From Euglena gracilis (Eukaryota): DNA of 64,000 bases. This document shows, one piece after another, positions 20,097-57,323 of this stretch; position 1 is the first letter of the stretch, and each line of letters starts with the position of its first letter. Where the stretch lies: assembly GCA_039621445.1 (NCBI GenBank), contig CP154954.1, positions 18,010,589 through 18,074,588 of the forward strand, given 5' to 3'. The notes below the pieces were generated by a model. That model searched no databases and was not told the DNA's origin. It saw nothing but the letters and a program-made list of their open reading frames with translations. The position numbers and the translations under genes are program-made.

Positions 20097-20135
20097 CACC
20101 TCGGGCTCCGCACTTTGCCCTGGTGAGGCCATGTC
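20097..20135 (+). mobile_element. Orphan left terminus of DIRS family A
   Basis: GACACCTCGGGCTCCGCACTTTGCCCTGGTGAGGCCATG matches the left ends at 30446 and 34665. Confidence 0.8.
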
Positions 20136-20169
20136 TTTTTCCACCGGCGAAAAACGCCTCCCCCCACAA

Positions 20170-20282
20170 TCGGACTCCACGACACAGGAAGGGGGAGGAA
20201 GGGGCCAGTGCCGGCTGCTCTGCTCTTGTGTGGTTGGTGTGCACGGGGGTGCCTCTTACTGCGTCTTTGTTGACGGAGCTGG
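20170..20282 (+). mobile_element. Left terminus (A1 plus inverted-repeat segment) of DIRS family B, interrupted by element E0
   Basis: TCGGACTCCACGACACAGGAAGGGGGAGGAAGGG matches the 61183 end; followed by ...GGGGGTGCCTCTTACTGCGTCTTTGTTGACGGAGCTGG. Confidence 0.75.
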
Positions 20283-23200
20283 TCGCACTCCCTCGGGGCA
20301 AAACGACAAGGGGGGGCACCGAGGGCGAGGCACAAAGACCTTGTGAGGCCATGCCTTGCTCACCGGCGGTTTTTTGTGTGCATTTTTTTTTGCCGCGTTT
20401 GGTCAGGAGGTCCCGCTGTGCCGCATCGCCGGTGTTGGCTCACGACGCTGCTCCGAGTTTGCGAAGTGGCTTCTTACCCTTGAGGTGTCACTCCCCCGCC
20501 CCCCCTGACCCCATTCTCTGACCTAGGGCTTTTGGAGATAAATTTCTTTTACTGGTGGGGGGGTCGGGCTCAAAAGGTCTTTGCTTCGCCCTCGGTGTCA
20601 ATTCCTCCCGCGTCGTTTTGCCTCGAGGGAGTACGAGAAACCTCGGGCTCCGCACTTTGCCCTTGTAAGGCCTTATTCTGCACTGAAATTAGGGGGGCCA
20701 GGGCATTTTACATGGGACCTTGGGCACCAAGTCGTTGATAATGGGCTGTGAAAGCCTCCACCCCCCTCCGCTGGCCAACTTCAAAAACTTCTTGGGCAGA
20801 AAGGCCCAATTATTTTTTAGTAAACCGACTCCCGCTCCTCTGGTGGAGTGGGCCTCCCACACCTGGGGGGGGTACCCCTTTTCTGGCCAAAAAATCTTTT
20901 GTAATAGAAGCAACGGTGTCTGAACTTATGGCCCTGAAGGGGGGTTTTAATGAAATCAGAAGGGGGCCCCCAGGTCTGACGAATAAACGTGTGGCAGCAA
21001 CATAAGGCATCATTAAATGAAAGGGGCTTATTTGTGGATATTGGGGAATGGACACCACCCTCTCCCACTTGTGAAACTTCTGGCCTTTACGCTTAATTTT
21101 TATGTAGGGTGCCCTGCCCAACACACTGGTGATTCGTTTGACTTGTGCCAAGTCTGAGGACCTGTATGTACAGAGGATTCGTGAGCAAAAAATAAGTTGT
21201 GTACGCAATGTACCAATTTCAGTGGGCATTGGGGCCTTGGCCAGCCCCAGGAGGATTGGGAGTGGGTCCGGTCCCCCATACTTCTCCAGATTTTGGTTCC
21301 GAGGATCTTGTACGGGGTCAACAGGGTGTGGAATATTGGCCCACCAGACCAAGGAACCAAAAACATAGCACTGTATGCGTAACGGGCTTGAGCCTTGGAA
21401 AATTGGAATAGTTGTACTAAAGCGTCAGCCACATGGTCTGTGGTGGCTTCAGGGGGGGGGAGAAGTGCAAAAGCACTCTGATAAACGTTTTAAACTGGGG
21501 TTTTCCCCCGGAAATCGGTACTGGTTTTAACCTGATTTTTGTTTCCCTTCCAATATTTGCCTGAGCAAATCATGCAAACCAGGTGCCACCTGGAGGGTGG
21601 CATTTGTTCCCCCCTACAATTGGTGAACATACCGTTGTAGGGGGTCATTTTCAGGCAGGGGGTCCTTGGAACTTTCGTTTTTATTAATTTGCGGCCACAA
21701 GGTGGCTGAATTCCAGTAGGGGGTGACCATCAAAAGATTGGTCTGGGGAAAAATTTTCAAACCTGGGAAGAAATTGTTGAATTATTGACAAAAGGGTTTG
21801 CATAAAGATACCCCATGTTGTCCAGTGGACATTATAATGCATTTACTGCTGTGGCATCCTACTGGGGCCATCTGGCCACGAAATTGGGCAATTTTTTGTT
21901 GCCTAGGGAGGCAAATAAGTGGGTTTCCATATTTGTAAATGTTTGGAATTGCTGCCTTAACCATTGAAAAAGTTGGAGGTCTAAGGAGTAATCCCCCTTG
22001 TCCATTTCCCATCTGCTTATGGGGTCTGCCAGGCATCCATTTGAAGGCCCCCAGTTGACTTGGAGGTTTACTTGGTCCTCTACGCACCATTTGAAAAATG
22101 GTCTTAGCATTGTGTTGAAGGGGTCCTTTCTGCCCCCCACCTTTGTTCAGGAAATAGTAAAATACCTGGTTGTCTACGGACAAAAAAACTGTTTCCCCAG
22201 GTTTGCTCAAACTTTTCACAGTTCTGATTGCTGCACTGAGCTCAATTACATTTACGTGTAAAATGGAGTCTTTTCTCCAAAATTCCTGCACAAGTTCTCA
22301 TTTGTGGATGTCCAGCCCCCCCCCCCCCAGGCATGGGTGCTGCTGTAACTCCCTTGTTGCATTTTGGGGGCAGGGTCTGCCCTCCCAGGTGTCCAGTATT
22401 ATTATGTAACCCTTAATTGGGCTTTGATTTCCGGAGAAATGGGGTGTTTTTAGTCCCAGGGGGCTGTGGACTTTGCCACCAAAAAATTTGCCAGTGTATC
22501 CGTAAAAGCCCTTAAAAAGGGCAGGGCCATTAGATTCCATCTTTTTTGACCCAAAATGGCAGCCAACTGCCTTTTTGACGTGTAATATTTTTCCACAATT
22601 TTTCCCAGATCCTTTTTGATGGTTTTGACTTTCTACGGGGGGCACTGGAAGTTTATTTGAAAACGCAGATGAGTTACCACTTGTGTCGGCTGCAGGGTGG
22701 ACTTTTTCACGTTGATTTTGAACCCTGAATTCAGGAAATCTTTGACGACTCTGTTCAGGTGACTTTTCAAAAAAAATTGGGTGGGGACAACCAGCAAAAT
22801 GTCGTCCAGGTAAATAAACAGCTGGATGCCCCTTTTTCTCCACAGTTTTTCGAATGTTTTCATCACTCACATGAAAATTTTGGGCATTACATTTAGTCCA
22901 AAGCAGTCTGCTTGAAATTCCCAGGTCTGCCCCCCCACCTGATGCCTTAAAAATGGCCTTAGTCCTGGACATGATGGAACATGAAAATAGGCACCCTTCA
23001 GGTCCATTTTTGCTGACCAATGGTGGAAAGATGTGCAGGATATGATCCAGTTTGAAAATGTTTACTTTAAATTGCTGATTGATTTCTCTGCAATCGCTGA
23101 TCATTCTCCGTTTTGTTGTTCCCCCTTCTAGCTTCGAAATTAGAAGCCAGAGGATTAAATGCTGGGTGTCTGAAACCAAAACTCGTTTCATCGAACCAGT

Positions 23201-24850
23201 TTTTTTTCGTAATCCAATAGGTTTTTTTCTGCCTTGTTCAGGTCGAAGTTGGCTCTGGGTTTTGGGTTGCTGGACAACTTGGGCGGGTTTACCCAGGGGG
23301 GTTGAATAACTTCTTTATCAGTTGAAACGTTGCTGAGGGGGCATTTTTTTTACCACAATTTTAGACTTTTCTGAAGTCTCTGGTACAGGGAGGTGTCTCC
23401 CCGTCTTTCCTGCATGGAATTTCTTCCCTGAATTAGATGATTCTTAGGGGGCTGGGTGGAGGGTGTCGGACATTTCACAGTCCCTGGAGACCCTAGGGAT
23501 TGAGCCTTTGGAAAAGCAAATGCTCCTGGGGGGATGTTCATGCACTCTCCTCTCTTGCCGCTCTCTGTCTGGAAGATGTAGTTGTTGGAATACATACAAT
23601 GGGGCTTAATGACTACTATAGGACCCCTGTTTGGCCTATCTGGTCTGCTTGACGTTGATGGGGTTGGTAGCCATACCATAGGGGTGCCTCTGAGTGTCCC
23701 CCCTTGTCGATTGAATAAACGCTGGTGGGGAGTCTCCCCCTTCCTGTTGCCAGCTGGCCCCTGGGGGACCCTCTTACTCTTGGGGCTGGACAGGGGACTG
23801 CCCATTTAAGTACAAAGCCCTTGCAGGGCTGTCCATTAGCTTCTGGGGGGCCTCTGAAGGACCCCTCATGTGACGTTTTGTAATTTATGACCTTCTTGTT
23901 GAAATTTTTGGCCCCAGCGACCTCGATGATGCAGGCCCCATGGCCTGATTAGGTTCTGGGTCGTCATGCCCATTTGACATCTTGAGGGGGTCTTGGGCCC
24001 CACCCTTTACCCCTGGGGGTGGTGTGATTTAGAAAGGATGGGGATGGTGTGTCTGTCTTTTTCTGTCCCTGCTATGTCCTGTGGGTTCTAGGTGCTGGTG
24101 GCCACCTTGGCCTTTGTTCCAGCAACTTCTGATGATGTAGATGCCTGCATTGCTGGTTGTGCAGTCATGGCTTTTGTTGCCTTCATGGCCTGTGCGGTTT
24201 TGGCTGCCGTAGCCCCGCTTTAATGCCTTGCCTGTTTTGAGTTGTTGGTCACCATGGCCTTGGTTCCAATGGCCGTAGTTTCCTGCTGGTTGTTGGATCT
24301 GCCCTTTGCGGGGTCTTCTGACAACTGTGTATTCCAGGGCGAAGTCCCCTTACAGTTTAAAAATGCATCCAGGAATTCAGGCCAAAGGGCCAGAGCCCGC
24401 ATGGGCAGATGGAACCAAGGCCAACGGGGAGAGCTTCACAGATGCCATCGGGACCAGTTTTTGAAGACAACCTACACTGGAAGAGGACAACCAAAAGGTG
24501 TGCCAAAAGCTTCTTTTCAAAAGTGTTTACCATGTTCCACACAATTGGGCAGGGTCCTCAATGCCCCCCAAGATTTCGATTGGGCATCACATCCAAGGAC
24601 AGAGCAAGGTGCCCCAGACCCAAGGGGGTCAAGGTCGTTCAACAAGGGCAGGGGACACTTTCAAAGCAGGGCCATCGTGGCCAATATCTGCTTGGCCAGG
24701 AGAGCATTCCCTAGGCCATGAAGGCAACACACCAGGGCCATGGAGGCCGTTTATTTCTAAGCCCACTGGACACATTATGCCCAGTCCATTCCTCCCCTGT
24801 CGGTTTGCCTCGATGGAGGCAAACCCTCCAAGAGGGCGGTAGTTCGCGGA
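20283..24850 (-). mobile_element. DIRS1-like retrotransposon E0 (family A), degenerate, 5'-truncated
   Basis: Frameshifted RT (FIYLDD), RNase H (HVNVIEL, VDNQ), MT and YR (YRSSDL). ICR at ~20570-20672; right ITR plus extension at 20283-20440. The 5' boundary is approximate. Confidence 0.9.
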
Positions 24851-27738: not shown

Positions 27739-29250
27739 GTGCAGCCATCGATGCGACAGCAACAAAAGTCAGCTCAGGACATCAGCCTGGCTTCAGAAAT
27801 CCTGAGGGAGTACCAAGAAAGTGCGGCAACCAAAGAATTGGAAAATGCCACAGGCACTGCCCATCTGGTACCCTGGTTTGTGTTGTCAAAACCAGAAGGG
27901 GGGGTCAAACATCGAATTATCACCGATTGTCGAGATCTAAATCAATTTTACTGTCCAGAAAGTTTCAGTTTGGAAGACATGACCACCATTTTCCCCAATT
28001 TTCAGAAAGGGGACTGGGCAATAAAACCGGATTTGAAAGATGCCTGCTTTCATCTGGATCTGGAAAAAAAATTCAAAAAATATGTCAGAATTCAGGTGGG
28101 CCCAGACCTGTGGGAGTATCAGGGGGCATGTTTTGGACTAAGCACCCTCCCAAAATTGTTCATGTCAACAATGAAATTCATGCAAAAACTGTGGAGATCA
28201 AAGGGGTTGCAGGTGTTCGTTTATTTGGACGACATCATTCTGTTTGGTTCAGCAGAAAATTTGGTCAAAAGACATTTGTTGACCATGCTGAACCCCTTAG
28301 GGGACGCTGGGTTCAAGATCAGCCAGAAAAAGTCTGTGTTAACACCAACACAAAGATTACAACATTTGGGGTCCATCAACGATCGGGAAGAAGGTGAACT
28401 GGAGGTGCCCCACCCAAAAATTAAAATCCACCAGAAAGGAATTGGGCAAGGTGGTTCTGGTCAGAAATTAAGTCGCAGAAAAAATGCCAGCAGTCTGGGA
28501 CAAATCAGAAGGTACCTCCCAGCTCTGCCATTTTTGCGGTTAGTATCCCAAGAACTGTTAGAGTTTAGTCAGCTGAATCAGGAAAAAGGCTGGGATTTTG
28601 CATCGACATTCCCAAAAAATCTGAAGGAGGAAATCAAATTTCTAAAGACATATCTGCAGCCAGGCTTGGGCAGACCTTTTCTCCAGCAGGCAAAAGGGGT
28701 ACTCTACTCAGACTCCTCCACATGGGCATGGGGGGCGGGTGGACTCCTGCCAAAACAAAGTCATACAAGAGGTTTGGCGGGAGCAAAAAATTGTTTGCAT
28801 ATCAATGTAAAAGAGTTGATGGCAGCAGTGCACACAGTGAAAGCCTTTGCAAAGCTCGGAGAAACTGTTCGGCTAAACGTGGACAATCAGTTTGCTCTAA
28901 GTTATCTCACCAAATGGGGGGGGGGGAACAGCAACTCAATCATTTTTGGAACCTCTGTTTCGCTGGTGTTTGAAAAACCAAATTCAGCTGCAAGTCCAGT
29001 GGGACATGGGGGATTATACACTGTGCCCAGGCCCGTTCAGGGATGTCTTAAAATTTTTCAGAAGGAAAATTTCCCCAGACACAGACATGTTTGCATCTCC
29101 AGGAAATGCAAAACCTCAATAATTTGTGGCCAGATGGCACAACCACCAACCATTTCTGGTAGATGCTCTGAAATGCGACCTTTACTCAGTAACAGAGGTT
29201 TATGCCAATCCCCCGTTGGAAAGTCATCGTTCCTTGGCTCATCAGGCTGA
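27739..29250 (+). pseudogene. E1 reverse transcriptase/RNase H (frameshifted)
   Basis: DLKDACFH, FGLS, FVYLDD, YSDSS, HINVKEL, VDNQ. Confidence 0.92.
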
Positions 29251-30065: not shown

Positions 30066-33000
30066 CACTGGGCTTTGCACAAAGCGCCACCGAGTAAAAT
30101 AACGAACTCCTGCAGTCCTCAACTTGCCTTTAGACCATCGCTACCTCTGTCAGCTCGTAGACCTGCTTCGCACACTTTGTTGTGTGCCAGCCGCCGCCCA
30201 GCCAGCGTTGCCCAGCTAACGTTGCCAAACCTCGATGACGGCGAAAAGAAATTCGGGATTCTGACAGGAGTCTGGCCACATTGCCCTCGTGAAAGAACAG
30301 CTCGTTCCACGAAGTGTTGAACACAGCTTCATCGGAGGATGTCAGTTTCTCTGCGTACGTTGCCATCCGATGTTACCGACGGGCGTTAATATCCGCCAAT
30401 TCCGGCACCAAAAAGCAGTAAGAAGCACCCCGCCAAGAAGAACACGACACCTCGGGCTCCGGACTTTGCCCTTGTGAGGCCATGCCTTGCTCGCCGGCGC
30501 TGTTGTTTGGATTGTTCTTTGCGCTGGGTTAGGAGTCCCTGCTTAGTGCCTTTTTTCGTCGGAGTTGGCTGATTCCTAATTTGCCCTTCGACACCCAGAA
30601 GAAAGGAACTTCAAAAACCACACCAATTGAGAAAAGAAGAAGACAATAAATCCAGTCAAATTATCCAGAAAGTCACGCTCGTGCAGAACTTCAAATCAAA
30701 AGTTGTTGAATTTTTCGAAAGAATTCAATGAAAGATGCAAATTCAAAGAAGCACAGCGCTGGAGAACGTCAAGAGGCAGCAGCAGCAGCAGCTGGACAAC
30801 TTGACGGCGCGGGTCAACTGTGGCGAACCGTGGCTGCCCCTTCCCTAAAAGCAATTTCCCCCACAGAAATTTCCAGAACCTAAACCCTCCAAAGTGATGG
30901 CCACGGACCCTGGCAGACAGTGGTCAGAAGACCCCGAAAGGGGCAGAAGCAACAACCAGCAGACCACTACGGCCATTGGAGCCAGGGCCATGGAGGCCAA
31001 CATTCTGCCAGTTACACCAATACCTTGTTCAAGCTGGGCCATGGCGGCCACAACAGCAAGCTGGGCCATGGCGGCCAAAACAGCAATGGCAATGGCGGCC
31101 GTTGGAACAAAGGCCAGGGCGGCCAACAATACCAAGGCCAGGGTGGCCAATAACACAAACAGCTGCCCAGTGGCAGGGCAGGACAGGTCCACAACATCCC
31201 CCCAACCATTTCTTCATCACACACCCCATCAGGGGCAAAGGATGGGCCCCCAGTGGCCCCCCAAGATTTTCAATGGGCATGGCGTCCCAGATCAAAGAGA
31301 AGTCAATGTGGACTGTCAAAGCTTCAAGAAGGCCAGTGGAGCCAACATCAAGAAGGCCAGTGGGGCCAGAGTTATCATCAAGGCCACTGGGGCCAACATC
31401 AAGGCCACTGGGGCCTTCAAATATCAGAAGGGGAACAACCCCAGAAGCTAAAAGGCTGTCCCCCAGCAGGGGATTTCAATATTCTATCCCAGTGGCAGGC
31501 CCACGAGGATGCCCCAGAATGGGCTGTGGAGGACAAGGGGGCAACCCCCCCTCAAGTTCGTTCTTCAGTGCCCATGGCAGGGGCAAGTCAAAACAAGGGG
31601 GAGACCCAAAAAGGTGCCCCTATAGTATGTCATTTGACAACACTTTGACACAACATTTGACAAAGTGGAGGATCAGAGAGCCTGTGAGCATGTACACCCC
31701 CCCAGCCACCATTAGAGAATGCTCAATCCCCAGAGGCACCAGGGGTGAAAAGTCCAACACCCCCCACCCAGCACCCAGAAAATCATCTAGTTGGGAAAAT
31801 ACATTCCATGGAGGAAAATGGGGAGACACCCCCCTGTACCAGAGACTTCAGAAAAGTCTAAAACGGTGGACAAAAAATGCCCCCCAGCAACGTGTCAATT
31901 GATAAAAAATGGAGTTCAACCCCCCTGGGTGAATCCCCCAAAATTGTCCACCCACCCCAAACCCAGGGCCAACCTGGACCTGAACCAGGCAGAAAAAAAT
32001 CTGCTGGATTACGAAAAAACTGGATCAGTGAAACGAGTTTGGGATTCAGAAACCCAGCATTTGATCCAATGGTTTTCAATTTCAAAACCAGAAGGGGGAA
32101 CAACCAAGTGGAGAATGATAGCGACTGCAGAGAAATAAATCAGCAGTTTCAAGTCAAACCCTTCAAGCTGGATCATATCCAACACATTTTTCTAGTTTTG
32201 GAAAAAGGCCACTAGGCAGCAAAAGGATGCCTATTTTCATATTCCAGTAAGTCCAGGCCTCAGGCCATTTTTAAGGTATCAGGTAGGGGGCAGACCTGGG
32301 AATTTCAAACAAGCTGCTTTGGGCTAAATGTAATGCCCAAAATTTTCATGTCAGCGATGAAAACATTCGAAAAACTGTGGAGAAAAAGGGGCATCCAGGT
32401 GTTTATTTACCTGAGCGACATTTTGCTGGTGGCCCCCACCCAAACCAATTAACAAAATAACCTGAAAACAGTTGTCAAAGTATTGCTAGATTCTGGGTTC
32501 AAAATCAATGTGAAAAAGTCCACCCTGCAGCCCACCCAAGTGGTAACCCACCTGGGTCTTCAATTGAACTTCCAGGAAGGAAAACTACAGGTGCCCCCCC
32601 CAGAAAGTCCAGAAAAGAAAAGGAGCTGGGGAAAATTGTGAAAAAAGATTACATGTCAAAAAGGCAATTGGCTGCCATTTTGGGCCAAATAAGATGCAAC
32701 CTAATGGCCCTGCCCTTTTTAAGGGATTTTACAGACCCCCTGGCAAATTTTTTGGTGGCAAAGTCCACAGCCCCCTGGGACTCAAAACATCCCATTTCCC
32801 AGGAAATCAAAGCCCAATTAAGGGAAATAAAAATTCTGCTGGACACCTGTGGGGGCAGACCCTTCCCCCAAAATGCAACCAGAGTGTTGCACTCAGACAG
32901 CAGCACCCATGCTTGGGGGGGGGGCTAGACATCCACACAGGAGAAATTGTGCAGGAATTTTGGAGAAAAGACTCCATTTTGCACATCAATGTAAAGGAGC

Positions 33001-36000
33001 TCAGTGCAGCAATCAGCACTGTGAAAAGTTTGAGCAAACCTGGGGAAACCGTTTCCTTGTCAGTGGACAACCAGGTAATTTAGTTTTACCTGACAAAAGG
33101 TGGGGGCAGAAAAGACCCCTTCAACAAAATGCTGAGACCATTTTTCAAGTGGTGCATGGAGTCCAAGTCAACTGGGTACCTTCAAAGACTGCCTAGCAGA
33201 CCCCATAAGCAGATGGGAAATGGACAAGGGGGATTACTCCTTAGACCCCCAACCTTTTCAATGGCTAAGAGAGCAATTCAAAAATTTCATACATATGGAA
33301 ACGGATTTACTTACCTCCCCGGGCAACAAAAAAACTGCCCAATTTTGTGGCCAGGTGGCCCCACTGGGATGCCACAGCAGTAAATGCATTACAATGTCCA
33401 CTGGACAACATGGGATCTTTATGCAAACCCCCCCTGGTCAATACTTCAACAATTTCTACCCAGGATGAAAATTTTTCCACAGGCCAAAGTTTTGATGGTC
33501 ACCCCCTACTGGCATTCAGCCACCTGGTGGCCCCAATTAATATAAATGAAAGTTCCAGGGACCCCCTGCCTGAAAATCACCCCCTACAGGGGCAGGTTCA
33601 CCAACTGCAGGGGGGAGAAAATGCCACTCCCCCACGTGGCCCCTGTTTTGCATGATTTGCTCAGGCAAATTTTGGAGGGGAAACAACTTCAGGTTGAGAC
33701 CATTAACGATTTCCTGGGGAGAAACCCCAGCTGAAAACGTTATCAGAGTGCCTTTGCACTTCTGTGGGTAATTTTGGAACACATGGGTGTGCCCCCCCCT
33801 GAAGCCACCACAGACCGAGTGGCTTACGCTTTAATTCAATTATTCCAATTTTCCGACGGCCAAGCCTGTAATGCCTACAGTGCTATGCTTTTGATTCCTG
33901 GGTTTGGTGGGCTGAGATTCCACACTCTGTTAACCCTCTACAAGAGGCTTTGGAACCAAAACCTGGAGAAGTATGGGGCATTTTGGGATCCCCTCCCAAT
34001 CCTCCTGGGGCTGGCAAAGGCCCCAATGCCCACACATTGCGTACACAACTTATTGTTTGCTCACGAATCCTCTGTTTATACCGATCCTCAGACTTATCCC
34101 AAGTCAAACGAACCACCAGTGTGTTGGGTAGGGCACCCTACATCAAGATTAAGCGTAAAAGACAGAAATTCCATATATGGGAAAGGGTTGCGTCCATTCC
34201 CCAGTGTCCCCGAATAAGCCCCTTTCATTTAATGATGTGCTATGTGGCTGCTACACGTTTATTCGTCAGACCTGGGGGCCCCCTCCTAATTTCATTAAAA
34301 CCCCCCTTCAGGGCCATAGGTGCTTACAAAATTGCTTCTATCAAGAAAGACTTTTTGGCCAAACATGGGGTACCCCCCCCAGGTGTGGGGGGGGCCACTC
34401 CACCAGAGGGGCAGGGGTTGGTTTACTAAAAAAAATTGGGCCTTTCTGCCGAAGAAGTTTGTGAAATTGGTCAGTGGAGGGCGGTGGAGGCTTTTACAGC
34501 CCACTATCAACGACTTGGTGCCCAGGGTGCCCTGGAAAATTCCCTGGCCCCCCTAATTTCAATGCACAATCTGGCCTCAGAAGGGCAAAGTGCGGAGCCC
34601 GAGGTGTCTCGTACTCCCTCGAGGAACACCGACAAGGGAGGAAGGGACACCGACGGCGAAGCACGACACCTCGGGCTCCGCACTTTGCCATTGTGAGGCC
34701 ATGCCTTGCTCGCCGGCGGATTGTTGTGTGATTGTTCGCTGCGCTGGGTTAGGAGGTCCCGCTTAGTGCCTTTTTTCGCCGGAGTTGGCTGATCCCTAAC
34801 TTGCCCTTCGACACCGAGAAGAAAGGAAAAGAGTTCACGAACGAAGAAGAACCAAGAAAATAAATCAATATCAATTCAATATCCAGAAGGACACGAACCG
34901 GACGAAGAGCAATTGAGAATTCCATTATCCATTTTCAATTTTGACTTCAATGAGCAATGCAGTGGAGAAGAAATTGGGATTGCATGGCCACGGACGTCCT
35001 GGAGCAGTTGCCGCAGAAGCAGGAGAACTTGGTGAAGCGGTCGACACGCGACAAACCGTGGCCGTTTTTTTCCCCCAGACCCCAACCCCAGAAATTTCCC
35101 AGCCCAAACCCCCCCCAGTGACGGCCACGGTCCTTGGACCACTGTGGACAGAAGGCCCAGAAGACAAAAGTCTGCCCCAGCCCTTGATGGGCAAAGGATG
35201 GGCCAGGGGGGCCCAAATTGCTCCACAATTGAACAACCACAGCCCACACATGTGGGGCATGTCCCCCAAAGGCGCCCAGTCGCCTATACAGAAATTGGCC
35301 AAGGGATGGGGAGATGGAATCAAGGCCAAGGAGGACAACACTACAGGGGCCATGGGGGCCAGTTTTACAAGCAAATCCCCTCAGGAAGGGGCAGAAGAGG
35401 TCTGTCAAACCCCCCCAATTCATCTATCACAACAGGCCCTCTCAAGGGGAAAAGGGGGGGGCCACAGCAGCCCCCCCAGACTTCAAGTGAGGTTGGAGGC
35501 CAAATCAAGGCCTGGAAGACCTACAGAAGGATTATGGAAAAAAATTTACACACGGAGACCTTGGAGACCAGCAGGGTGGACCCACAGTGGCCACCAAGAA
35601 GCTAAGGAACCAGCAGGGTGGACCCTCAGTGGCCACCAAGAAGCTAAGGAAGCTGCTCGAGAAATCCCCCGAGGGACCCACAGAGGCCCTCTGCCAAAAA
35701 AAGGGGGAAAAGGGGACCAACAGTGACCCCTTTCATGACCCAGCCTCAGGAGGTCAACGGACCCACAGTGGCCTTTTTGGAGGGAGGGGCAGGAACCCCT
35801 CCTACATTTATTTCTCAATTCCCGATCAGTCAATCAAGGGAGGGACCCACAGAGGCCCCCCTATGGTATGTCAACCAACCACATCAACATGGAGAAGACC
35901 AGATAGGCCAAACAGGGGCATTAAGCCCTATGGTATGTCTTCCAACAACAAGACCATCCAGAGAGGTGAGCAGAGAGGGAGAGAGTGCATGCACATCCCC

Positions 36001-36310
36001 CACAAAAAAATTCTTTTTCCAAGGGCCCAAGCCCTAGGGGACCTAGGGGTGCAACGTCCAACACCCCCAAGCCAACCCCCCCAGAATCATCTTACCCAGA
36101 AAATAAATTCAATGGAGGAAATATGGGGAGACACCCCCCTCCATCAAAGGCTGCAAAAAAGCCTGAAATGTCCAAAATCTCCAGCCCCGCCCCCCAAAAA
36201 TCATCTTATCCAAGAAATCAATTCCATGGAGAAAAAATGGGGAGACACCCCTCTCCATCAAAGGCTCCAAAAAAGCCTGAAATGGTGGACAAAAAATCCC
36301 CCCCAACAAC

Positions 36311-38190
36311 ATGTCAACTTATCAAGGATGGCATTCAACCACCTTGGGTAAACCCACCAAAAATGTCACCCACCCAAAACCCAGGACAAATTTGAACCTG
36401 CACCAAGCAGAAAAAATACTGCTGGATTACGAAAAATCTGGATCCGTAAAGAGGGTGAGGGATTCAACCACCCAGAACCTAATCTCCTGGTTTCTGATTT
36501 CAAAACCAGAAGGGAAGCAGACAAAATGGAGACTAAAAAGCGATTCCAGGGAAATAAATCAACGTTTCCAAGTGAAACCATTCAAGCTGGATCACATCCA
36601 GTACATTTTTCCAGTGTTGGAAAAAGGCCACTGGGCAGCAAAAATAGACCTAAAGGATGCTTACTTCCACATCCCAGTGAGCCAGGCCTTAAGGCCCTTT
36701 CTAAGACATCAGGTGGGTGGGCAGACCTGGGAATTCCAGGCAGGCTGTTTTGGCCTGAATGTAATGCCCCAAATTTTTATGTCAGTAATGAAAACATTCG
36801 AAAAGCTGTGGAGGAAAAAGGGCATCCAGGTATTTATTTACCTGGACGACATTTTACTGGTGGCCCCAACACAAAACATCTTACAAAATCACCTGAACAC
36901 AGTGGTCAGGGATTTAATCAAATCAGGATTCAAAATCAATGTAAAAAAGTCCACCCTGCAGCCCACCCGAATCGTAAATCATCTTGGATTTCAGCTAAAC
37001 TTCCAAGAGGGAAAATTACAGGTGCCCCCCCAGAAAATAAAAACAGTAAAAAAGGACCTGGGAGAAATAGTGAAAAAAGATTACATGTCAAAAAGGCAAC
37101 TGGCTGCCATTTTGGCCAAATCAGATGCAACCTAATGGCCTTGCCCTTTCTAAGGGCCTTTCCGGATGCCCTGGCAATTTTTTTGGTGGAAAATTACACA
37201 GCCCCTGGGACTCAAAACATCCCATTTCCCAAAGAATAAAGGACCAATTAGGAGAAATAAAAATTCTGCTGGACACCTGGGGGGCAGACCCTTCCCCCAA
37301 AGTGCAACCAGGGAGTTGCACTCAGACAGCAGTACCCATGCCTGGGGGGGGGTTGGACATTGGAACAGGCAAAATTGTGCAAGAATTTTGGAGGGAAAAC
37401 TCCATTTTGCACATAAGTGTCAAAGAATTAAGTGCAGCAATAAGCACAGTTCAAAGCCCCAGCCAGCCAGGGGAAACTGTGTCCCTATCCGTGGACAATC
37501 AAGTAATTTACTATTACTCAACAAAAGGGAAGGGCAGAAAGGACCCTTTCAATTCCATGCTAAGACCTTTCTTCAAATGGTGCATGGAGCACAACATAAA
37601 CCTGCAAGTAAAGTGGGTCCCCTCCAAGGAATGCCTGGCAGACCCCATAAGCAGGTGGGAAAGGGACAGAGGGGATTATTCCCCGGACCCCCAACTTTTT
37701 CAATGGCTGAGACAGCAGCTAAAAAATTACATCAACCTAAAAACAGACCTTTTTGCCTCACCAGGCAACAAAAAAATGCCACAATTTGTGGCCAGGTGGC
37801 CCCACTGGGGAGCCACAGCAGTGGATGCATTACAATGTCCACTGGACAACATGGGGGGCCTTTATGCAAACCCCCCCTGGTCTGTTATCCAAAAATTTCT
37901 CCCCAGAATGAAAATGTTTCCACAGGCCAAAGTTTTGATGGTCACCCCCTACTGGGATTCAGCCACATGGTGGCCCCAGTTAATAAAAATGAAAGTTACA
38001 GGGACCCCCTGCCTGAAAATCACCCTCTACATGGGTGTGTTCACCAATTGCAAGGAGGAAAAGTGCCACCCCCCAGGTGGCCCCTACTTTGCATGCTTTG
38101 CTCAGGAAAATTCTGCAGGGGAAACAAGTACAAAATTCAACCATTATCGATTTCCTGGGCAGAAAACCCAGCTTAAAGCGTTATCAAAGC
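36311..38190 (+). pseudogene. E3 RT / RNase H / N6-methyltransferase-like pol (homopolymer frameshifts)
   Basis: IDLKDAYFH, FIYLDD, HSDSS, LADPISR, DLFAS, YANPPW. Confidence 0.93.
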
Positions 38191-39010
38191 GCTTTTACGC
38201 TTTTATGGGTAATTTTGGACAAAATGGGGGTACCCCCCCCCTGAAGCCACCACTGACCAAGTGGTTGACGCTTTAATTCAACTGTTCTAATTTTCAAAGG
38301 CCCAAGCACGCAATGCATACAGTGCTATGCTATTGATCCCTGGCTTTGGGGGCCTGAGGTTCCATGCCATGTTGGCACCTTACAAAAGGCTTTGGAACCA
38401 AAACCTGGAGAAATATGGTGCATTCTGGGATCCCCTCCCAATCCTCCTGGGGCTGGCACAGTCCCCCCTGCCCTCTGATATATGTACATTGCGTACACAA
38501 CTCATTTTCTGTTCACGAATCCTCTGTTTATACAGAAGTTCTGATTTGGCACAGGTCCAAAGAACCACCAGTGTGTTGGGGGGGGGCACCCTACATCAAA
38601 ATTAACCGTAAAGGTCAAAAACACCATAAGTGGGAGCGAGTTGTCTCCATTCCCCAATGCCCCCAAATCAGTCCCTTTCATTTAATTATGGCATATGTGG
38701 CAGCAACACGTTTCTTTGTGAAACCTGGGGGCCCCCTTTTAATTACGATAAACCCCCCCTATAAAGCCATTAAGGCAGACACCATTGCTTCTATCACCAA
38801 AGAATTTTTGACCAAACAGGGGGTACCCCCCCCCCAGGTTTGGGGACCCCACTCCACAAGAGGGGCAGGGGCTGGTTTACTCAAAAAATTGGGCCTTTCT
38901 GACCAAGAAGTTTTTGAAATTGGTCAGTGGAAGGGGGTGGAGGCTTTCACAGCCCATTATCAAAGACTGGGTGCCCAAGGTGCTTTGGAAGGTGACCTGG
39001 CCCCCCCCTT
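38090..39010 (+). pseudogene. E3 tyrosine recombinase (frameshifted)
   Basis: YRSSDL, HSTRG, GQW, AHY. Boundaries approximate. Confidence 0.9.
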
Positions 39011-40487
39011 TTTTAGTGCACAATCTGGCCTCACAATGGCAAAGTGCGGAGCCCGAGGTGTCTCGTACTCCCTCGAGGCAAGCCGAGAAGGGAGGAAGGG
39101 ACACCGCGGGCGAAGCACAAAGACATTGTGAGCCCGACCGTCCCACCCATTTAAGAACATTTGTCTTCAAACGCCCTCGGTCAGAAGATGGGGGCCAGGG
39201 GGGGGGAGGCGGGGGGGGGGGACCCTCCAGGGAAAAAGAAAGCGCCATGGTCGCCACGTCGGAGACAATGCAGCTAACTCCGGCGAGGCGGCACTAAGCG
39301 GGACCTCCTAACCCTGCGCAGCGCACAATCACACAACAAACCGCCGGCGAGCAAGGCATGGCCTCACAATGTCTTTGTGCTTCGCCCTCGGTGTCCCTTC
39401 CTCCTTTCTCGGCTTGCCTCGAGGGAGTACGAAAAGACCTTGTGAGCCCGACCCCCGACCCGTAAAAGAAAATTAGTGCTCAAAAGCCCTCGTTCAGAGA
39501 GTCGGGGCCAGGGAAGGGGTGGAGAGGGGGGGACACCCCCCAGGGGCAAGAAGCCACGTCGCCCAGTCGGAGCAGCATCGTCAGCCAACTCCGGCGGGGC
39601 GGCACTAAGCAGGGACTCCTAACCCAGCGCAAAGAACAATCCAAACAACACCGCCGGCGAGCAAGGCATGGCCTCACAAGGTCTTTGTGCTTCGCCCTCG
39701 GTGTCCCTTCCTCCCTTGTCGGTTTTTCCTCGAGGGAGTACGACAACACAACACAACAGCCGGCACACAAAGCAGGATCTCGCCCACAGAATGTGCGGAG
39801 CCCGAATGGTTGGTACCTCGCGCGGGGTGAAAAACGCCTCGGGCTACCCAGTTCGATTTGGTGCCTTTTTTTAATTGAGCCAACCAACACTGGTCACACT
39901 TCTGCGCTCGGAAACGCACAGAAGAAGATTAAAGAGAGCAGGACCATGTATAGAAAGTCTTGTCCCTCCTTTCCCTTCCCAGAAGGCGTTGCATTTTTTA
40001 AAAAAAGCGGTGCAGGCTTTTTGTTTTTAGGTAATTAAAAGAAAATCCCATTGAAATACTTGGAACTGAGCCTTTGGCCAAATGCATCGAAATACGGATT
40101 GACAGAAACCCGGATAACACTTGACCGCCCTGGAAAATAGCACCTTAAAAAGACTTAAAGTTCCTTTAAAAGCTTTAACTTTGGGGGAAAAAACCCTTCA
40201 AACATCATTCTTCCTGTGTCCTGGGAGCAAACCCCAACGAACAGTCCATGGCCAAGGCACCGTTCACAAAAGCAAAGTGCAGAGCTCGCGGTGTCGATAT
40301 GCTGGCGTGATTGCCACCTGTAAAGGCCCATTCAGTTGCCAGTATCAACCATTGCCGAGTGATGGCATAAAGTGGAGCCCCCACAGTACCCCACAGTACC
40401 CCACAGTGCCCCCCAACCCCCCACACCCCCCCACACCCCCCCCACACACCCCCACACTGCCCCCCCCACACCCCCCCCACACCCCCC

Positions 40488-40555
40488 CCCTCCCACCGGG
40501 ACCCCAGCGGTGCCCAGCCTCCCCGTGGCGGGAGGGGGTCAACGTGCTAAGGCGC
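40488..40555 (+). ncRNA. Candidate HDV-like ribozyme
   Basis: P1 CCCTCCC/GGGAGGG, P3 GCC/GGC, L3 TCCCCGT, P1.1 GG, J4/2 GCTAA, P2 GTGCC/GGCGC; P4 minimal. Confidence 0.5.
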
Positions 40556-51556: not shown

Positions 51557-52807
51557 TCACCGCAGGAGAACGAAGAAGAACGTTTCCTTTTCCTCCATTT
51601 CCTCCTCTTTCCTCTGACCCAGCCGGTGTTGGACGGGGGTTCTCGTACTCCCTCGAGGCAGACCGAGAAGGGAGGAAGGGACACCGAGGGCGAAGCACAA
51701 AGACATTGTGAGGCCATGCCTCGCTCGCCGGCGGTTTGTTGTGATTGTTTTGGTGAGCTGGGTTAGGAGGTCCCGCTTAGTGCCGCCTCGCCGGAGTTGG
51801 CTGCATTGTCTCCGACGTGGCGACCATGGCGCTGTTTCTTTGCTTGGGGGGGTCCCCCCCACCTCCCCCCCCCCCTGGCCCCCATCTTCTGATCGAGGGC
51901 GTTTGAAGACAAATTTTCTTATATGGGTGGGGGGGTCGGGCTCACAATGTCTTTGTGCTTCGCCCTCGGTGTCCCTTCCTCCCTTCTCGGTCTGCCTCGA
52001 GGGAGTACGAAACACCTCGGGCTCCGCACTTTGCCATTGTGAGGCCAGATTGTGCACTGAAAAAAGCGGGGCCAGGGCATCCTCCAAAGAACCTTGGGCA
52101 CCAAGTCTTTGATAATGGGCTGTGAAAGCCTCCACCCCCTTCCATTGACCAATTTCACAAACTTCTTGGTCAGAAAGGCCCAATTTTTTTAGCAACCCAA
52201 TCCCTGCCCCTCTGGTGGAGTGGGGTCCCCAAACCTGGGGGGGTACCCCCTGTTTGGTCAAAAAGTCTTTGGTGATAGAAGCAATGGTATCTGCCTTAAT
52301 GGCTTTGTAGGGGGGTTTTAACGTAATTAAAAGGGGGCCCCCAGGTTTCATAAAGAAACGTGTTGCTGCCACATAAGACAACATTAAATGAAAGGGGCTG
52401 ATTTGGGGGCATTGGGGAATGGAGACAACTCGCTCCCACTTGTGGAGTTTTTGACCTTTACGGTTAATTTTGATGTAGGGTGCCCCCCCCAACACACTGG
52501 TGGTTCTTTGGACCTGTGCCAAATCAGAACTTCTGTATAAACAGAGGATTCGTGAACAGAAAATGAGTTGTGTACGCAATGTACATATATCAGAGGGCAG
52601 GGGGGACTGTGCCAGCCCCAGGAGGATTGGGAGGGGATCCCAGAATGCACCATATTTCTCCAGGTTTTGGTTCCAAAGCCTTTTGTAAGGTGCCAACATG
52701 GCATGGAACCTCAGGCCCCCAAAGCCAGGGATCAATAGCATAGCACTGTATGCATTGCGTGCTTGGGCCTTTGAAAATTGGAACAGTTGAATTAAAGCGT
52801 CAACCAC
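51557..52807 (-). CDS. E4 tyrosine recombinase (catalytic part)
   Basis: YRSSDL, HSTRG, GQW, AHY. The ORF reads on through the ICR/ITR. Confidence 0.9.
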   Translation of the reverse strand: MVDALIQLFQFSKAQARNAYSAMLLIPGFGGLRFHAMLAPYKRLWNQNLEKYGAFWDPLPILLGLAQSPLPSDICTLRTQLIFCSRILCLYRSSDLAQVQRTTSVLGGAPYIKINRKGQKLHKWERVVSIPQCPQISPFHLMLSYVAATRFFMKPGGPLLITLKPPYKAIKADTIASITKDFLTKQGVPPQVWGPHSTRGAGIGLLKKLGLSDQEVCEIGQWKGVEAFTAHYQRLGAQGSLEDALAPLFSVHNLASQWQSAEPEVFRTPSRQTEKGGRDTEGEAQRHCEPDPPTHIRKFVFKRPRSEDGGQGGGEVGGTPPSKETAPWSPRRRQCSQLRRGGTKRDLLTQLTKTITTNRRRARHGLTMSLCFALGVPSSLLGLPRGSTRTPVQHRLGQRKEEEMEEKETFFFVLLR

Positions 52808-55800
52808 TTGGTCAGTGGTGGCTTCAGGGGGGGGGTACCCCCATTTTTTCCAGAATCACCCATAAAAGCGTAAAGGCACTTTGGTACCTTTTCAAACTGG
52901 GGTTTCTTCCCAGGAAATCTGTAATGGTTGAATTTTGTATTTGTTTCCCCTCCAAAATTTGCCTGAGCAAATCATGCAAAGGAGGGGCCACCTGGGGGGT
53001 GGCATTTTTTCCCCCCTGCAATTGGTGAACATACCCATGTAGGGGGTGATTTTCAGGCAGGGGGTCCCTGGAACTTTCATTTTTATTAACTGGGGCCACC
53101 ATGTGGCTGAATCCCAGTAGGGGGTGACCATCAAAACTTTGGCCTGTGGAAACATTTTTAATCTGGGGAGAAATTTTTGGATTACAGACCAGGGGGGGTT
53201 TGCATAAAGATCCCCCATGTTGTCCAGTGGACATTGTAATGCATCCACTGCTGTGGCTCCCCAGTGGGGCCACCTGGCCACAAATTGTGGCAGTTTTTTG
53301 TTGCCTGGTGAGGCAAAAAGGTCTGTTTTTAGGCTGATGTAATTTTTGAACTGCTGTCTCAGCCACTGAAAAAGTTGGGACTCCAGTGAGTAATCCCCCC
53401 TGTCCATTTCCCACCTGCTTATGGGGTCTGCCAGGCAGTCTTTGGAGGGGACCCACTTTACTTGCAGGTTTATGTTGTGTTCCATGCACCATTTGAAGAA
53501 GGGTCTTAGCATGGAATTGAAAGGGTCCTTTCTGCCCCCCCCCCCTTTTGTTAAGTAATAGTAAATTACTTGATTGTCCACGGATAGGGACACAGTTTCC
53601 CCTGGCTGGCTGAGGCTTTGTACTGTGCTTATTGCTGCACTTAATTCTTTGACATTTATGTGCAAAATGGAGTTTTCCCTCCAAAATTCTTGCACAATTT
53701 TGCCTGTTCGAATGTCCAGCCCCCCCCAGGCATGGGTACTGCTGTCTGAGTGCAACTCCCTGGTTGCATTTTGGGGGAAGGGTCTGCCCCCCAGGTGTCC
53801 AGCAGAATTTTTATTTCCTTTAATTGGTCCTTTATTCTTTGGGAAATGGGATGTTTTGAGTCCCAGGGGGCTGTGGAATTTTCCACCAAAAAATTTGCCA
53901 GGGCATCCGTAAAGGCCCTTAGAAAGGGCAGGGTCATTAGATTGCATCTGATTTGGCCCAAAATGGCAGCCAGTTGCCTTTTTGACATGTAATCTTTTTC
54001 CACCGTTTTTCCCAGCTCCTTTTTTACTGTTTTTATTTTCTGGGGGGGCACCTGTAATTTTCCCTCTTGGAAGTTTAGCTGAAAGCCAAGATGATTGACG
54101 ATTTGGGTGGGCTGCAGGGTGGACTTTTTCACATTGATTTTGAATCCTGATTTGATTAAATCCCTGACCACTGTGTTCAGGTGATTTTGTAAGATGAGTT
54201 GTGTTGGGGCCACCAGTAAAATGTCGTCCAGGTAAATAAATACCTGGATGCCTCTTTTCCTCCACAGTTTTTCGAATGTCTTCATTACTGACATGAAAAT
54301 TTGGGGCATTACATTCAGGCCAAAACAGCCTGCCTGGAATTCCCAGGTCTGCCCCCCCACCTGATGCCTTAAAAATGGCCTTAGGCCTGGACTTACTGGA
54401 ATATGAAAATAGGCATCCTTCAGGTCTATTTTTGCTGCCCAGTGGCCTTTTTCCAAAACTGGAAAAATGTGCTGGATGTGATCCAGCTTGAAAGGTTTCA
54501 CTTGGAACCTTTGATTTATTTCCCTGCAATCGCTTATTAATCTCCATTTTGTCTGCCCCCCCTCTGGTTTTGAAATCAGAAACCAGGGGATCAGGTGCTG
54601 GGTGGTTGAATCCCTCACCCTCTTTATGGATCCAGATTTTCCAGTAGTATTTCAGATCCAGATCCAGCAGTATTTTTTCTGCTTGGGGTAAGTTCAAATT
54701 TGCCGTGATTTTTGGGTGGGTGGATATTTTTGGTGGGCTGACCCAGGGGGGTTGAATGCCATCCCTGATGAGTTGACATGTTGTTGGGGGGGCATTTTTT
54801 GCCCACCATTTCAAGCTTTTTTGCAGCCTTTGATGGAGGGGGGTGTCTCCCCATTTTTCTTCCATGGAATTTATTTCCTGGATAAGATGATTTTGGGGGG
54901 GCTGGGCTGGAGATGTTGGACATTTTAGGCTTTTTTGCAACCTTTGATGGAGGGGGGTGTCTCCCCATATTTCCTCCATTGAATTTATTTTCTGGGTAAG
55001 ATGATTCTGGTGGGGCTGGGCTGGGGGTGTTGGACATTGCACCCCTAGGTCCCCTAGGGCTTGGGCCCTTGTAAAAGGAAATTTTTTCTGGGGGGATGTG
55101 CATGCACTCTCTCCCTCTCTGCTCACCTCTCTGGATGATCTTGTTGTTGGAAGACATACCATAGGGCTTAATGCCCCTGTTTGGCCTATCTGGTCTTCTC
55201 CATGTTGATGTGGTTGGTTGACATACCATAGGGGGGCCTCTGTGGGTCCCCCCCTTGATTGATTGATCGGGAATTGAGAAATAAATGTTGGAGGGGTTTC
55301 TGCCTCTCCCTCCAAAAGGGCCACTGTGGGTCCCTTTTCCTCCTGGGGCTGGGTCATTGAAAGGGCCACTGTGGGTCCCTTTATCCCCCATTGTTGGCAG
55401 AGGGCCACTGTGGGTCCCTCGGGGGATTTCTCCAGCAGCATCCTTAGCTTCTTGGTGGCCACTGTGGGTCCACCCTGCTGGTTCCTTAGCTTCTTGGTGG
55501 CCACTGTGGGTCCACCCTGCTGGTCTCCAAGGTTTCCATGTATAAATTTTTTTCCATAATCCATCTTGTAGGTCTTCCAGGCCTTGATTTCTTTCTTGGC
55601 CTCCAACCCCATTGGAAATCTGGGGGGGCTGCTGTGGCCCCCCCTTGTCCCCTTGAGAGGGGCTGTTGTGATAGATGAATTGGGGGGGTTGGACAGACCT
55701 TTTCTGCCCCTTCCTGAGGGGATTTGCTTGTGAAACTGGCCCCCATGGCCCCTGTGGTGTTGACCTCCTTGGCCTTGATTCCATCTCCCCATCTTCTGGC

Positions 55801-56426
55801 CAATTGGTGCCCAGGTTGCTGGGCGCCTTTGGGGGAGATGCCCCTGATGTGTGGGCTTTGATTGTCCAATTGTGTAGCATTTTGGGCCCCCATGGCCCAG
55901 TCTTTGCCCACGAAGGGCTGGGGCTGGCTTCTGTCTTCTGGGCCTTCTGGCCACAGTGGTCCAAGGACCGTGGCCGTCACTGGGGGGGGTTTTGGGCTGT
56001 GAAATTTCTGGGGTGGGGGGCTGGGTGGGAAGAACAGCCACGGTTTGCCACGTGTTGACCGCATCTCCAAGGTCTCCTTCTGCTGCGGCCACTCCTCCAG
56101 GACGTCCGTGGCCATATAATTCCAATTTCTTCTCCACTGCATTGCTCATCGAAGTCGAATTTGACAATTGAATTCTCAATTGATGTTCGTCTGGTTCGTG
56201 TTCTTCTGGATATTTAATTGATATTGACTTCTCTTCCCAGTTCTTCCTCGTTTGTGAACTCTGTTCCTGTCTTCTGGGTGTCGAAGGGCAAGTTAAGAAT
56301 CAGCCAACTCCGGCGAAAAAAGGCACTAAGCGGGACCTCCTAACCCAGCGCACCAAAACAATCACAACAAACCGCCGGCGAGCGAGGCATGGCCTCACAA
56401 TGGCAAAGTGCGAAGCCCGAGGTGTC
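51643..56426 (-). mobile_element. DIRS1-like element E4 (family A), full-length, close relative of E3
   Basis: Termini GACACCTCGGG (56426) and GGGAGTACGA (51643); ICR ~51941-52046; RT, RH, MT, YR. Confidence 0.95.
52892..54618 (-). pseudogene. E4 RT (53656..54618) and RNase H/MT (52892..~53790), one frameshift in a G-run
   Basis: FIYLDD; HSDSS, HINVKEL, LADPISR; DLFAS, YANPPW. Confidence 0.92.
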
Positions 56427-56561
56427 CACTCCCGCCCCCACCGCCCCACCCGCGGACTAGTCTCCTGACCATTCGGGCTCCGCACTGCGAGATGGTGAGG
56501 TCCTGCTTTCCTTGCCGGCTGTTCTGTTCTGGTGTGTTTGTGCGTGCGCGGGGGGTGCTTC

Positions 56562-57323
56562 TTACTGCGCCTTTGTTGCCGGAGTTGGCGATGATGAGGC
56601 CTCCTCCGACACCTTGGCGAAGCTGAACCGCCGTGGCCCCGCCCCCCCCCTCTCCCATGGTCGCTTGGTGGGGGGCCCCCCCCCTGATGGGGATGGTGGT
56701 CTCTTTCTGTGTTTCTGGGTGGGTGGTTGGGGCTGCTTGGTCGGGGGTCCCCTTTCTGGTTGGGATGTCTTTCGTTTTCTGCTGATTTTTTGGGTGGGAG
56801 GGTTGGGCTCACCATCTTCTTGTGCTTCGCCCTCTTGGTCCCTTCCTCCCCCTTCCTCTGTCGTGGGAGTCCGAGACCATTCGGGCTCCGCACTGCGAGA
56901 TGGTGAGGTACTGTGCACCCCCCTTTGGGCCATAATATTTTGAATTTTTGATACGACCCCAAGTCGCAAATAATGGGCTTGGAAGGCCCCAAAATTTTTC
57001 CACTGACCCAGCTGCTGGACTTCTTCCACTTGCAAACCAGCATTTTTCCACCATAAGACCCCAGCCCCTCTGGTGCTGTGGGGTTTCCAATGGGTGGTGT
57101 CCACCCCCCCCTCTTGCAGAATTTCTTTGGTAAGGGAATTCACCCTTTCTGATGTCAAAGGTCTTTTACCATCCAAAGACCATAACAAATTATTTTTGTG
57201 TCCAACCATGTGGGCTGTCCTTTCCACATATTCTTTCAATAAATGCCAGGGGCTGATGAGGGGGGTGTGTGGCAAATTCAAAATCTCCTCCCATCTTGGG
57301 AATTGCCACCCTTTCCTTTGCAA
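56562..57323 (-). CDS. E5 tyrosine recombinase C-terminal half
   Basis: ISPWHLL, HSTRG, GQW, AHY. Joined to the previous ORF by one frameshift in the homopolymer at ~57331-57341. Confidence 0.88.
   Translation of the reverse strand: MQRKGWQFPRWEEILNLPHTPLISPWHLLKEYVERTAHMVGHKNNLLWSLDGKRPLTSERVNSLTKEILQEGGVDTTHWKPHSTRGAGVLWWKNAGLQVEEVQQLGQWKNFGAFQAHYLRLGVVSKIQNIMAQRGVHSTSPSRSAEPEWSRTPTTEEGGGRDQEGEAQEDGEPNPPTQKISRKRKTSQPERGPPTKQPQPPTQKHRKRPPSPSGGGPPTKRPWERGGAGPRRFSFAKVSEEASSSPTPATKAQ

Follow-up and report, generated by a model that had tools for sequence, protein, structure and literature searches.

A conserved 9-6-9 core in the internal joint copies of nested DIRS-order retrotransposons, a candidate exchange site for integration without target identity

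The stretch of Euglena gracilis DNA analysed here (64,000 nucleotides of contig CP154954.1, forward-strand positions 18,010,589 to 18,074,588; hereafter the window) contains a nest of DIRS-order retrotransposons, one inserted within another. Comparison of this repeat-rich, eukaryote-like DNA with itself revealed several element copies of about 4.7 kb, which together with older remains are named E0 to E5 (Table 1). E1 to E4 form a family (A) with inverted terminal repeats (ITRs) together with an internal complementary region (ICR), E5 represents a second family (B) with split direct repeats, and E0 a third. Ages taken from identity to E4 (92.2% over 4781 nt for E3, 82% for E2 and about 80% for E1) are consistent with the order of nesting. 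A gap of 40 bp separates E4 from E5. The left (5') end of E1 and the internal site of E0 were looked for in the window and not found, and E0 is regarded as having lost the latter. Families A and B have in common a 24-bp core, two 9-bp arms around a 6-bp spacer, and the evidence set out below suggests that a Cre-like recombinase acts at this core to insert the elements into unrelated targets.

Matches to the Pfam reverse transcriptase (RT) family RVT_1 were obtained for the pol product of E5 (E=5.1e-14; open reading frame (ORF) 57774-60719, open over 981 aa) and for E0 (E=5e-15), and in E3, E4 and E5 the RT is followed, where one would be expected, by a weak match to the methyltransferase (MT)-like family Dam (E=0.0022-0.0053; 17-18 bits, the cut-off being 28.1). 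Pol identity is 45-48% between families A and B, and 44% between E0 and E5. The last ORF encodes, as judged from its modelled fold, a Cre-like tyrosine recombinase. Its sequence produced no meaningful match in Pfam (E up to 10) or among PDB sequences, and a protein-guided locus search of viral and genome contigs with the recombinase alignment returned no relative, while 56 relatives at E<=1e-5 were found among metagenome-derived proteins. An AlphaFold (AF2) model generated from 31 aligned rows, with a predicted local distance difference test (pLDDT) score of 83, matched Cre best in a fold search (4crx_A, E=7e-7, 277 columns); 39 chains were matched at E<=0.001, and XerH, lambda Int and Tn1549 Int (6emy_A, E=1.7e-3) were among the other fold matches. 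R108, K133, H212-S-T-R215, W238 and Y248 are invariant or at least 90% conserved in the 31 rows, and from their spacing we take them to be the catalytic set of tyrosine recombinases (R108/K133/H212-x-x-R215/W238/Y248). No integrase family was matched in the eight ORF products scanned. The RVT_1 matches, the recombinase fold and the conserved residues together place the elements in the DIRS order, and 'HSTR' is a named motif of DIRS1-like recombinases (PMC3266345; here and below, PMC numbers stand for extracts of the papers).

A first-pass annotation of this DNA had already attributed a tyrosine recombinase to the elements and had pointed to E5 as near-intact. The fold and the conserved R..K..HxxR..W..Y residues support the former, but for the enzyme itself E5 is not near-intact, as its recombinase is broken over two frames (57705-57343 and 57332-56823), and it is E4 in which this gene is open. 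E5 has pol open and E4 has RT and MT in separate frames; neither is whole in the assembly. On the minus strand, very long ORFs at 52892-56299 and 57190-60951 (1135 and 1253 aa) lie mostly outside the RT frame and overlap that of pol; strand-biased composition may be the cause, or they may correspond to the long ORF overlaps described for DIRS1-like elements.

The left end of E3 (34665-34701) pairs with 39026-39062 at 100% complementarity over 37 nt, and its right end (39360-39432) with 39063-39135 at 96% over 73 nt; the two internal halves abut at 39062|39063 with zero overlap. E4 has an equivalent arrangement. Region 39026-39132, which had been annotated as the circular junction (39027-39132), is by this pairing an ICR, the probable template of an end-to-end joint and not the joint itself. 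The inverted arms around a 6-bp spacer that had been noticed there are nevertheless present, its centre reading GGAGTACGA-GACACC-TCGGGCTCC on the opposite strand. The same annotation had offered the integration of an RT-derived circle without target-site duplication (TSD) as an inference; the ICR, the joint or circle, TSD-free insertion and nesting are already known for DIRS elements and belong to their published model (PMC7192593, PMC3266345).

The family A core consists of the 9-bp arm GGAGTACGA, the spacer GACACC and the 9-bp arm TCGGGCTCC, and the window contains five occurrences of the 24-mer at no more than one mismatch, against 0.00 expected from 100 shuffles. The inverted arms first noted in both families were confirmed, with 7/9 complementary positions in A and 8/9 in B. 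Conservation of these arms around a variable spacer is stronger evidence than the dyad: across the five internal copies, 17 of 18 arm positions are invariant (left 9/9, right 8/9) compared to one of the six spacer positions, with three kinds of spacer in family A alone (GACACC, GAAACC, AACACC). Across cores, the two arms read GGAGT(A/C)CGA and TCGGGCTCC. The longest invariant run in the 178-column alignment (14 nt) takes in the left arm and comes to an end at the arm/spacer edge. This conservation holds in spite of the low pol identity of the two families (45-48%). When E4 and E5 were compared by blastn, the joint or terminal region, the inner repeat and two short pieces of pol were the only parts that aligned. 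Pairing alone leaves the ICR sequence free, since the ends are copies of it, and the conserved arms thus point to recognition by a protein. Pattern searches for further copies gave 74 loci with a 14-mer in viral contigs, all due to chance and in unrelated contexts, and two with a 19-mer in metagenome contigs, both due to chance. A third arm-like motif (TGAGCCCGA or TCGGGCTCA; 39445-39453, 39129-39137, 51936-51944 and 20564-20572), possibly an accessory site for binding, was seen in every family A copy at a distance of about 70-80 nt from the core; its form in E5 is GTGAGCCCAACC.

The elements break off at the arm/spacer edge, CGA|GAC, the one break point that their ends reveal. This boundary, first reported for E2 to E5, is constant at four left and four right family A ends and at four B-type ends (E5 and E0, one of them with a 1-nt ambiguity), and is therefore found at E0, E1 and the 20095 fragment as well. 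The break keeps to the edge in three families despite differing site orientation, and the right ends of E1 to E4 all terminate GGAGT(A/G)CGA. The target hexamers listed earlier (CAACAC, AAAGAC, GAACCC and GTACCA) and the lack of a duplication beside them were verified, and the flanks of E2, E4 and E5 are mutually unlike. The clearest case is E3, the target of which could be read in paralogous copies with the site empty (...ggcgaagcac-aaagacattgtgag): E2 reads ...ggcgaagcac|E3|aaagaccttgtgag around it, with no base gained, lost or duplicated. Integration without spacer identity, also claimed before, held for all flanks that could be compared, with in-register matches to the spacer of 0-4/6 across 12 flanks and none of 6/6.

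These ends can be set against the rule published for DIRS1-like elements, in which the ICR halves overlap by 3 bp and the element starts and finishes with that trinucleotide (PMC3266345, restated in PMC7192593). Identity of 3 bp is the sole target model met in the extracts of the DIRS literature, and the rule holds in 23 of 28 annotated DIRS1-like elements, with NTT at both ends (PMC3266345). For the present elements, a trinucleotide shared by both ends is extremely improbable and the rule is contradicted for this lineage: the ICR halves abut without overlap, the elements start with GAC and finish with CGA, and the missing trinucleotide (CGA before a left end, GAC after a right end) is supplied by none of the 6+6 flanks.

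The reading that we favour, with a probability of roughly 0.6, is guided end joining followed by an exchange at CGA|GAC between a core-bound recombinase complex and a non-homologous target, preferentially beside resident copies. In the proposed sequence of events, the ends of the cDNA would be joined with the internal copy of the joint as a guide (the complementary ICR in family A, the same-strand B1A2 block described below in family B). The joint would carry the 24-bp core, the arms of which would be bound by two subunits of the Cre-like recombinase, and strands would be exchanged at the arm/spacer edge with a target unlike the spacer. The element would then enter without a duplicated or lost base, keeping the spacer on its TCGGGCTCC side, and insertion would be biased to about 50-100 bp from the core arm of a resident copy. 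The observed basis is the element anatomy, the constant boundary, exact TSD-free insertion, the lack of target identity, the recombinase fold and arms that are conserved while the spacer varies.

Several points weigh against this proposal. That the arms are bound, where cleavage falls, that a circle forms and how many strands are exchanged is what we infer from sequence, and the cDNA of DIRS-1 from Dictyostelium is mostly linear and single-stranded (PMC7192593). The sample of ends is small, comprising seven elements or fragments, all from a single 64-kb nest. A weak trend to spacer-like targets was detected (summed best matches 25 vs 20.9±2.3, P=0.06, not significant); moreover, GTACCA stands beside both E5 and E0 and resembles the spacer GACCAT plus one base, and the alignment of the E5 repeats runs on to 61189. 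Identity of spacer and target is thus not required, but some similarity may be favoured. Finally, a 9-(6-8)-9 dyad with its edge on a given point is expected at 2.4-3.0% of window positions for at least 7/9 complementarity and at 0.6-0.9% for at least 8/9, so the dyad alone is modestly beyond chance and, as A and B are homologous and do not make two independent trials, suggestive only.

A modest dyad and a linear cDNA, as reported for DIRS-1 (PMC7192593), would also agree with ends that are set by replication, through priming and ICR-templated fill-in of linear cDNA, and with insertion by host repair or a non-canonical reaction, the dyad being incidental. The break would in that case be defined solely by where ICR pairing stops. 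Such a route appears quite improbable, since E3 went in with single-base accuracy, neither bases lost nor filler acquired, unlike typical end joining, the arms are conserved while the spacer varies, and the break lies precisely at the arm/spacer edge in three families with differing site orientation.

A further difficulty for recognition of the core by the recombinase is that the 24-mer lies within the open tail of the recombinase frame, in A as well as in B, and could be kept by coding or by another constraint, such as ICR pairing or priming. The tail A-E-P-(E/D)-x-S-R-T is present in 22 of the 31 recombinase rows, with V, G, W, R, K, L or Q as the middle residue; the other nine rows comprise four variants, including AEPEVFRT in E4, and five that stop before the core site or lack it. 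Two of the four differences between A and B are synonymous, which makes a peptide constraint possible, and further downstream blocks of the ICR (GGGAGGAA, GGCGAAGC) are conserved too. On the other hand, disorder is predicted for the tail (residues 272-279, 281-286 and 296-300 have pLDDT <50) and the approximately 20 residues ahead of AEP vary freely. The left arm is invariant at all codon positions in the five copies, and the invariant run stops at the arm/spacer edge, where the E/D codons differ in the third base. As for pairing, it leaves the ICR sequence free, as argued above. Taken together, maintenance of the 24-mer by such constraints in place of recombinase binding is improbable.

The side on which the spacer is kept constitutes the last of these objections. 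In 7/7 elements or fragments it stays on the TCGGGCTCC side, never after GGAGTNCGA, whereas a classical two-step exchange with mismatched spacers would leave it at either end. Integrases of the Tn916/Tn1549 and CTnDOT types tolerate mismatched coupling or overlap sequences, and an analogy with Tn916 had been drawn for these elements; this analogy fails in predicting the spacer at either end. The fixed side is a better fit to one fixed exchange point than to a Tn916-like heteroduplex.

It would also be explained if one strand alone were exchanged, as in integron attC and CTX phage, where one-strand exchange takes place on a folded single strand. Here, the ends of single-stranded cDNA would anneal to the ICR on that strand and so form the duplex core, the strand cut at CGA|GAC would be exchanged with the target and replication would resolve the product. 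In family A, ends and ICR are indeed complementary on one strand; no flank is identical to the spacer, and this route neither needs homology nor leaves a duplication. Furthermore, single-stranded, mostly linear DIRS-1 cDNA is competent for retrotransposition and needs the ICR (PMC7192593). However, the internal copy of family B is on the same strand as the ends and cannot fold in this way, yet core and break are the same, and the present sequence data contain neither a single-stranded intermediate nor a half-exchanged product. We consider one-strand exchange possible though unlikely as compared to exchange at a core-bound joint. Equally tentative is a broader view, in which the core is a portable module with one exchange point, exchange is confined to the strand cut at CGA|GAC, distance (about 50 bp from a resident arm) and not the sequence of the target acts as the guide, and the module works in either gene orientation, so that A and B could have arisen from one stock with E5 as an intermediate.

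Families A and B, which had been treated alike, differ in how the joint is stored. E5 has a split direct repeat in which A1 (61002-61183) equals A2 (56693-56874; alignment 61002-61189 to 56693-56879, 188 nt, 99.5%, same strand) and B1 (56875-56913) equals B2 (56467-56505; 39 nt, 97.4%, same strand), with B1A2 just after the recombinase gene. The internal copy is thus complementary to the ends in family A and on the same strand in family B. Inner inverted repeats of 53 nt (60951-61002 / 56541-56592) are also present in E5. Read in the direction of the genes, A and B have like internal sites, GGAGCCCGA-nnnnnn-TCG(T/G)ACTCC, while the ends of B are the reverse complements of those of A, and the site is therefore flipped relative to the genes; the break within the site, CGA|GAC, is unchanged by this flip. 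Split direct repeats A1..B1A2..B2 are the architecture of PAT/Ngaro-type elements (PMC4157794, PMC9210276), and intermediates between inverted and split direct repeats 'are not observed' according to the extract of PMC4157794. E5, which has the core plus about 100 nt of surrounding sequence in common with the ITR/ICR family, may be such an intermediate.

The insertion points lie near a core arm of another, resident copy, within 46-104 nt in 5/5 cases and within 46-60 nt in 4/5 (Table 1). For random positions, the probability of a distance of no more than 104 nt was 0.05-0.10 and that of 40-60 nt was 0.008-0.017, the pattern having been counted post hoc. The target sequences at the five points are unrelated; the distance is what they have in common. 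DIRS-1 prefers insertion into resident copies (Cappello et al. as cited in PMC7192593), and no distance rule was found in the extracts of the DIRS literature.

The stretch or part of it was found in 20 public runs, 14 of them at half of its words or more. Four runs were placed, and the contigs placed on 10 kb numbered 221,695 in run X1 and 82,683 in run X14, a depth that is not a copy number; numbers of this order indicate that the element families are very abundant. The best-supported loose end among those listed was 52012, one base inside the break, where the ICR of E4 has A for G. In X1, at least 94 contigs with unlike preceding sequence (agreement 0.34) reach this position, which is the pattern expected of many left ends in different contexts. 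Among the joints listed, the best-supported ones into 52012 came from 51698 (6 contigs in X1, 1 in X14), 51702 and 51704, that is, from 47-53 nt off the right-end arm of E4, and the joint 51698 to 52012 is the same junction as that of E3 in E2. A joint from 51637 to 56438, with 16 other letters between, was considered as the empty site of E4 and rejected, as it differs from the expected sequence. Other contig joints (51703-51707 to 56374-56375, and 56516 to 61115) bring about 50 nt of one end together with about 60-70 nt of the other, and look like 115-120-bp derivatives without an interior. Runs X15 and X17, from an RNA library of a leaf-litter metatranscriptome, contain contigs corresponding to portions of E4 and E5 (0-2 differences over 220-270 nt); by these matches the organism or a close relative is taken to be present in that sample, contigs from an RNA library being no proof of transcription.

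We compared the elements with known systems. Family A resembles DIRS1-like elements (DIRS-1 of Dictyostelium and families from fish, frogs, lizards and decapods) in its genes (gag-like, RT/RNH/MT-like and recombinase), in inverted terminal repeats that are extended on the right, in ICR halves (37 and 73 nt) that pair with both ends, in making no target duplication and in inserting into other copies. The combination of ITR and ICR that defines these elements is found in family A and not in family B. Family A differs from them in having neither a 3-bp 'circular junction' overlap nor a common end trinucleotide, and in a joint that is a 9-6-9 near-palindrome. E5 is likened by architecture to PAT-like elements (split direct repeats A1..B1A2..B2, MT domain), having split repeats and the weak Dam-like match; it differs in the inverted repeats inside its split repeats and in what it has in common with an ITR/ICR family of the same genome. 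Crypton DNA transposons are likewise eukaryotic tyrosine-recombinase elements without true TSDs, but they are flanked by direct repeats of 4-6 bp, a target microhomology (PMC13465315) that is lacking at the elements described here.

Among site-specific recombination systems, Cre/loxP, XerCD/dif and the lambda core have the same fold, inverted arms, a spacer of 6-8 bp and a break at the arm/spacer edge. They need identical spacers in both partners, whereas the target of these elements has neither identity nor, at the insertion point, recognisable arms. Tn916/Tn1549 and CTnDOT likewise need no spacer identity for integration and make no true duplication, and Tn1549 Int is one of the fold matches. 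They differ in leaving a heteroduplex coupling sequence that can segregate to either end, and in arising by excision, not by reverse transcription as these elements do.

A 9-6-9 core with conserved arms is not described in the extracts of PMC3266345, PMC7192593, PMC9210276 and PMC4157794, and literature searches turned up no account of one. Within that literature, the core, the lack of the 3-bp overlap, the single core behind two terminal architectures, the fixed side of the spacer and the pattern of distances are apparently new, although an earlier description is possible. The copies offer a short candidate substrate (9-bp arms, 6-bp spacer, a break known to the base) together with an apparently open recombinase gene in E4. 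One core with opposite terminal architectures bears on the relationship between inverted-repeat and split-direct-repeat elements, and a recombinase that accepts unrelated targets while the insertion point within its own site stays fixed would, if true, be of interest for integration tools.

Table 1. Elements, ends, cores and insertion points in the window.
Feature	Position	Strand	Details
E0	20170-39810/39811	+	larger, older element of a third family; B-like ends TCGGACTCC... at 20170 and ...GGAGCCCGAATGGT at 39797-39810; hosts E1 and E2 (with E3)
E0 RT	~27742-28944		E0 recombinase decayed
E1	20283-24330	-	older family A copy; host is E0's left inverted repeat; GGAGTGCGA (20283-20291) is the right end
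E2	30446-34664 + 39433-39743	+	family A, split by E3; host is right inverted repeat of E0
E3	34665-39432	+	family A (DIRS1-like, ITR and ICR), 4768 bp, inside E2; start GACACCTCGGGCTCC, end GGAGTACGA
E3 ITRs	34665-34770 / 39290-39395		106 nt, 89%
E3 ICR	39026-39132	+	left half 39026-39062, right half 39063-39132/39135; 24-bp core 39048-39071
E4	51643-56426	-	family A, 4784 bp
E4 ITRs	56298-56402 / 51704-51807		right end 51639-51715 complementary to 51938-52013
E4 recombinase ORF	51956-52855	-	300 aa used; open, continues through ICR (SAEPEVFRTPS)
E5	56467-61183	-	family B, 4717 bp, split direct repeats
Fragment	20095-20137	+	44 nt, family A-type left end (GACACCTCGGGCTCC...), 60 nt from left end of E0
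Family A left ends	30446 (E2), 34665 (E3), 56426(-) (E4), 20095 (fragment)		GACACC-TCGGGCTCC
Family A right ends	39432 (E3), 39743 (E2), 51643(-) (E4), 20283(-) (E1)		GGAGTACGA; GGAGTGCGA in E1
E5 ends	from 56467; up to 61183		GACCAT-TCGGGCTCC; GGAGTCCGA
Core, E2 ICR	34594-34617	-	exact
Core, E3 ICR	39048-39071	-	exact
Core, E1 ICR	20628-20651	+	spacer GAAACC
Core, E4 ICR	52002-52025	+	spacer AACACC
Core, E5 internal	56866-56889	+	spacer GACCAT
Insertion point, E3	34664|34665		47 nt to resident arm
Insertion point, E2	30445|30446		53 nt to resident arm
Insertion point, E1	20282|20283		104 nt to resident arm
Insertion point, E4/E5	56426-56467		46 nt to resident arm
Insertion point, E0 and 20095 fragment	20169|20170		60 nt to resident arm

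Long homopolymer runs are numerous within the elements. Short C-rich repeats, with CCCCACA-like and CACCCA units, form arrays at 61280-62110, 40379-40520, 993-1200 and 1731-2000, and there is a short TTAGG/TTAGGG-like run at about 61285-61305. Between 43360 and 44210, the window contains a tandem array of a 50-bp unit in about 14-18 copies, which is unrelated to the elements.

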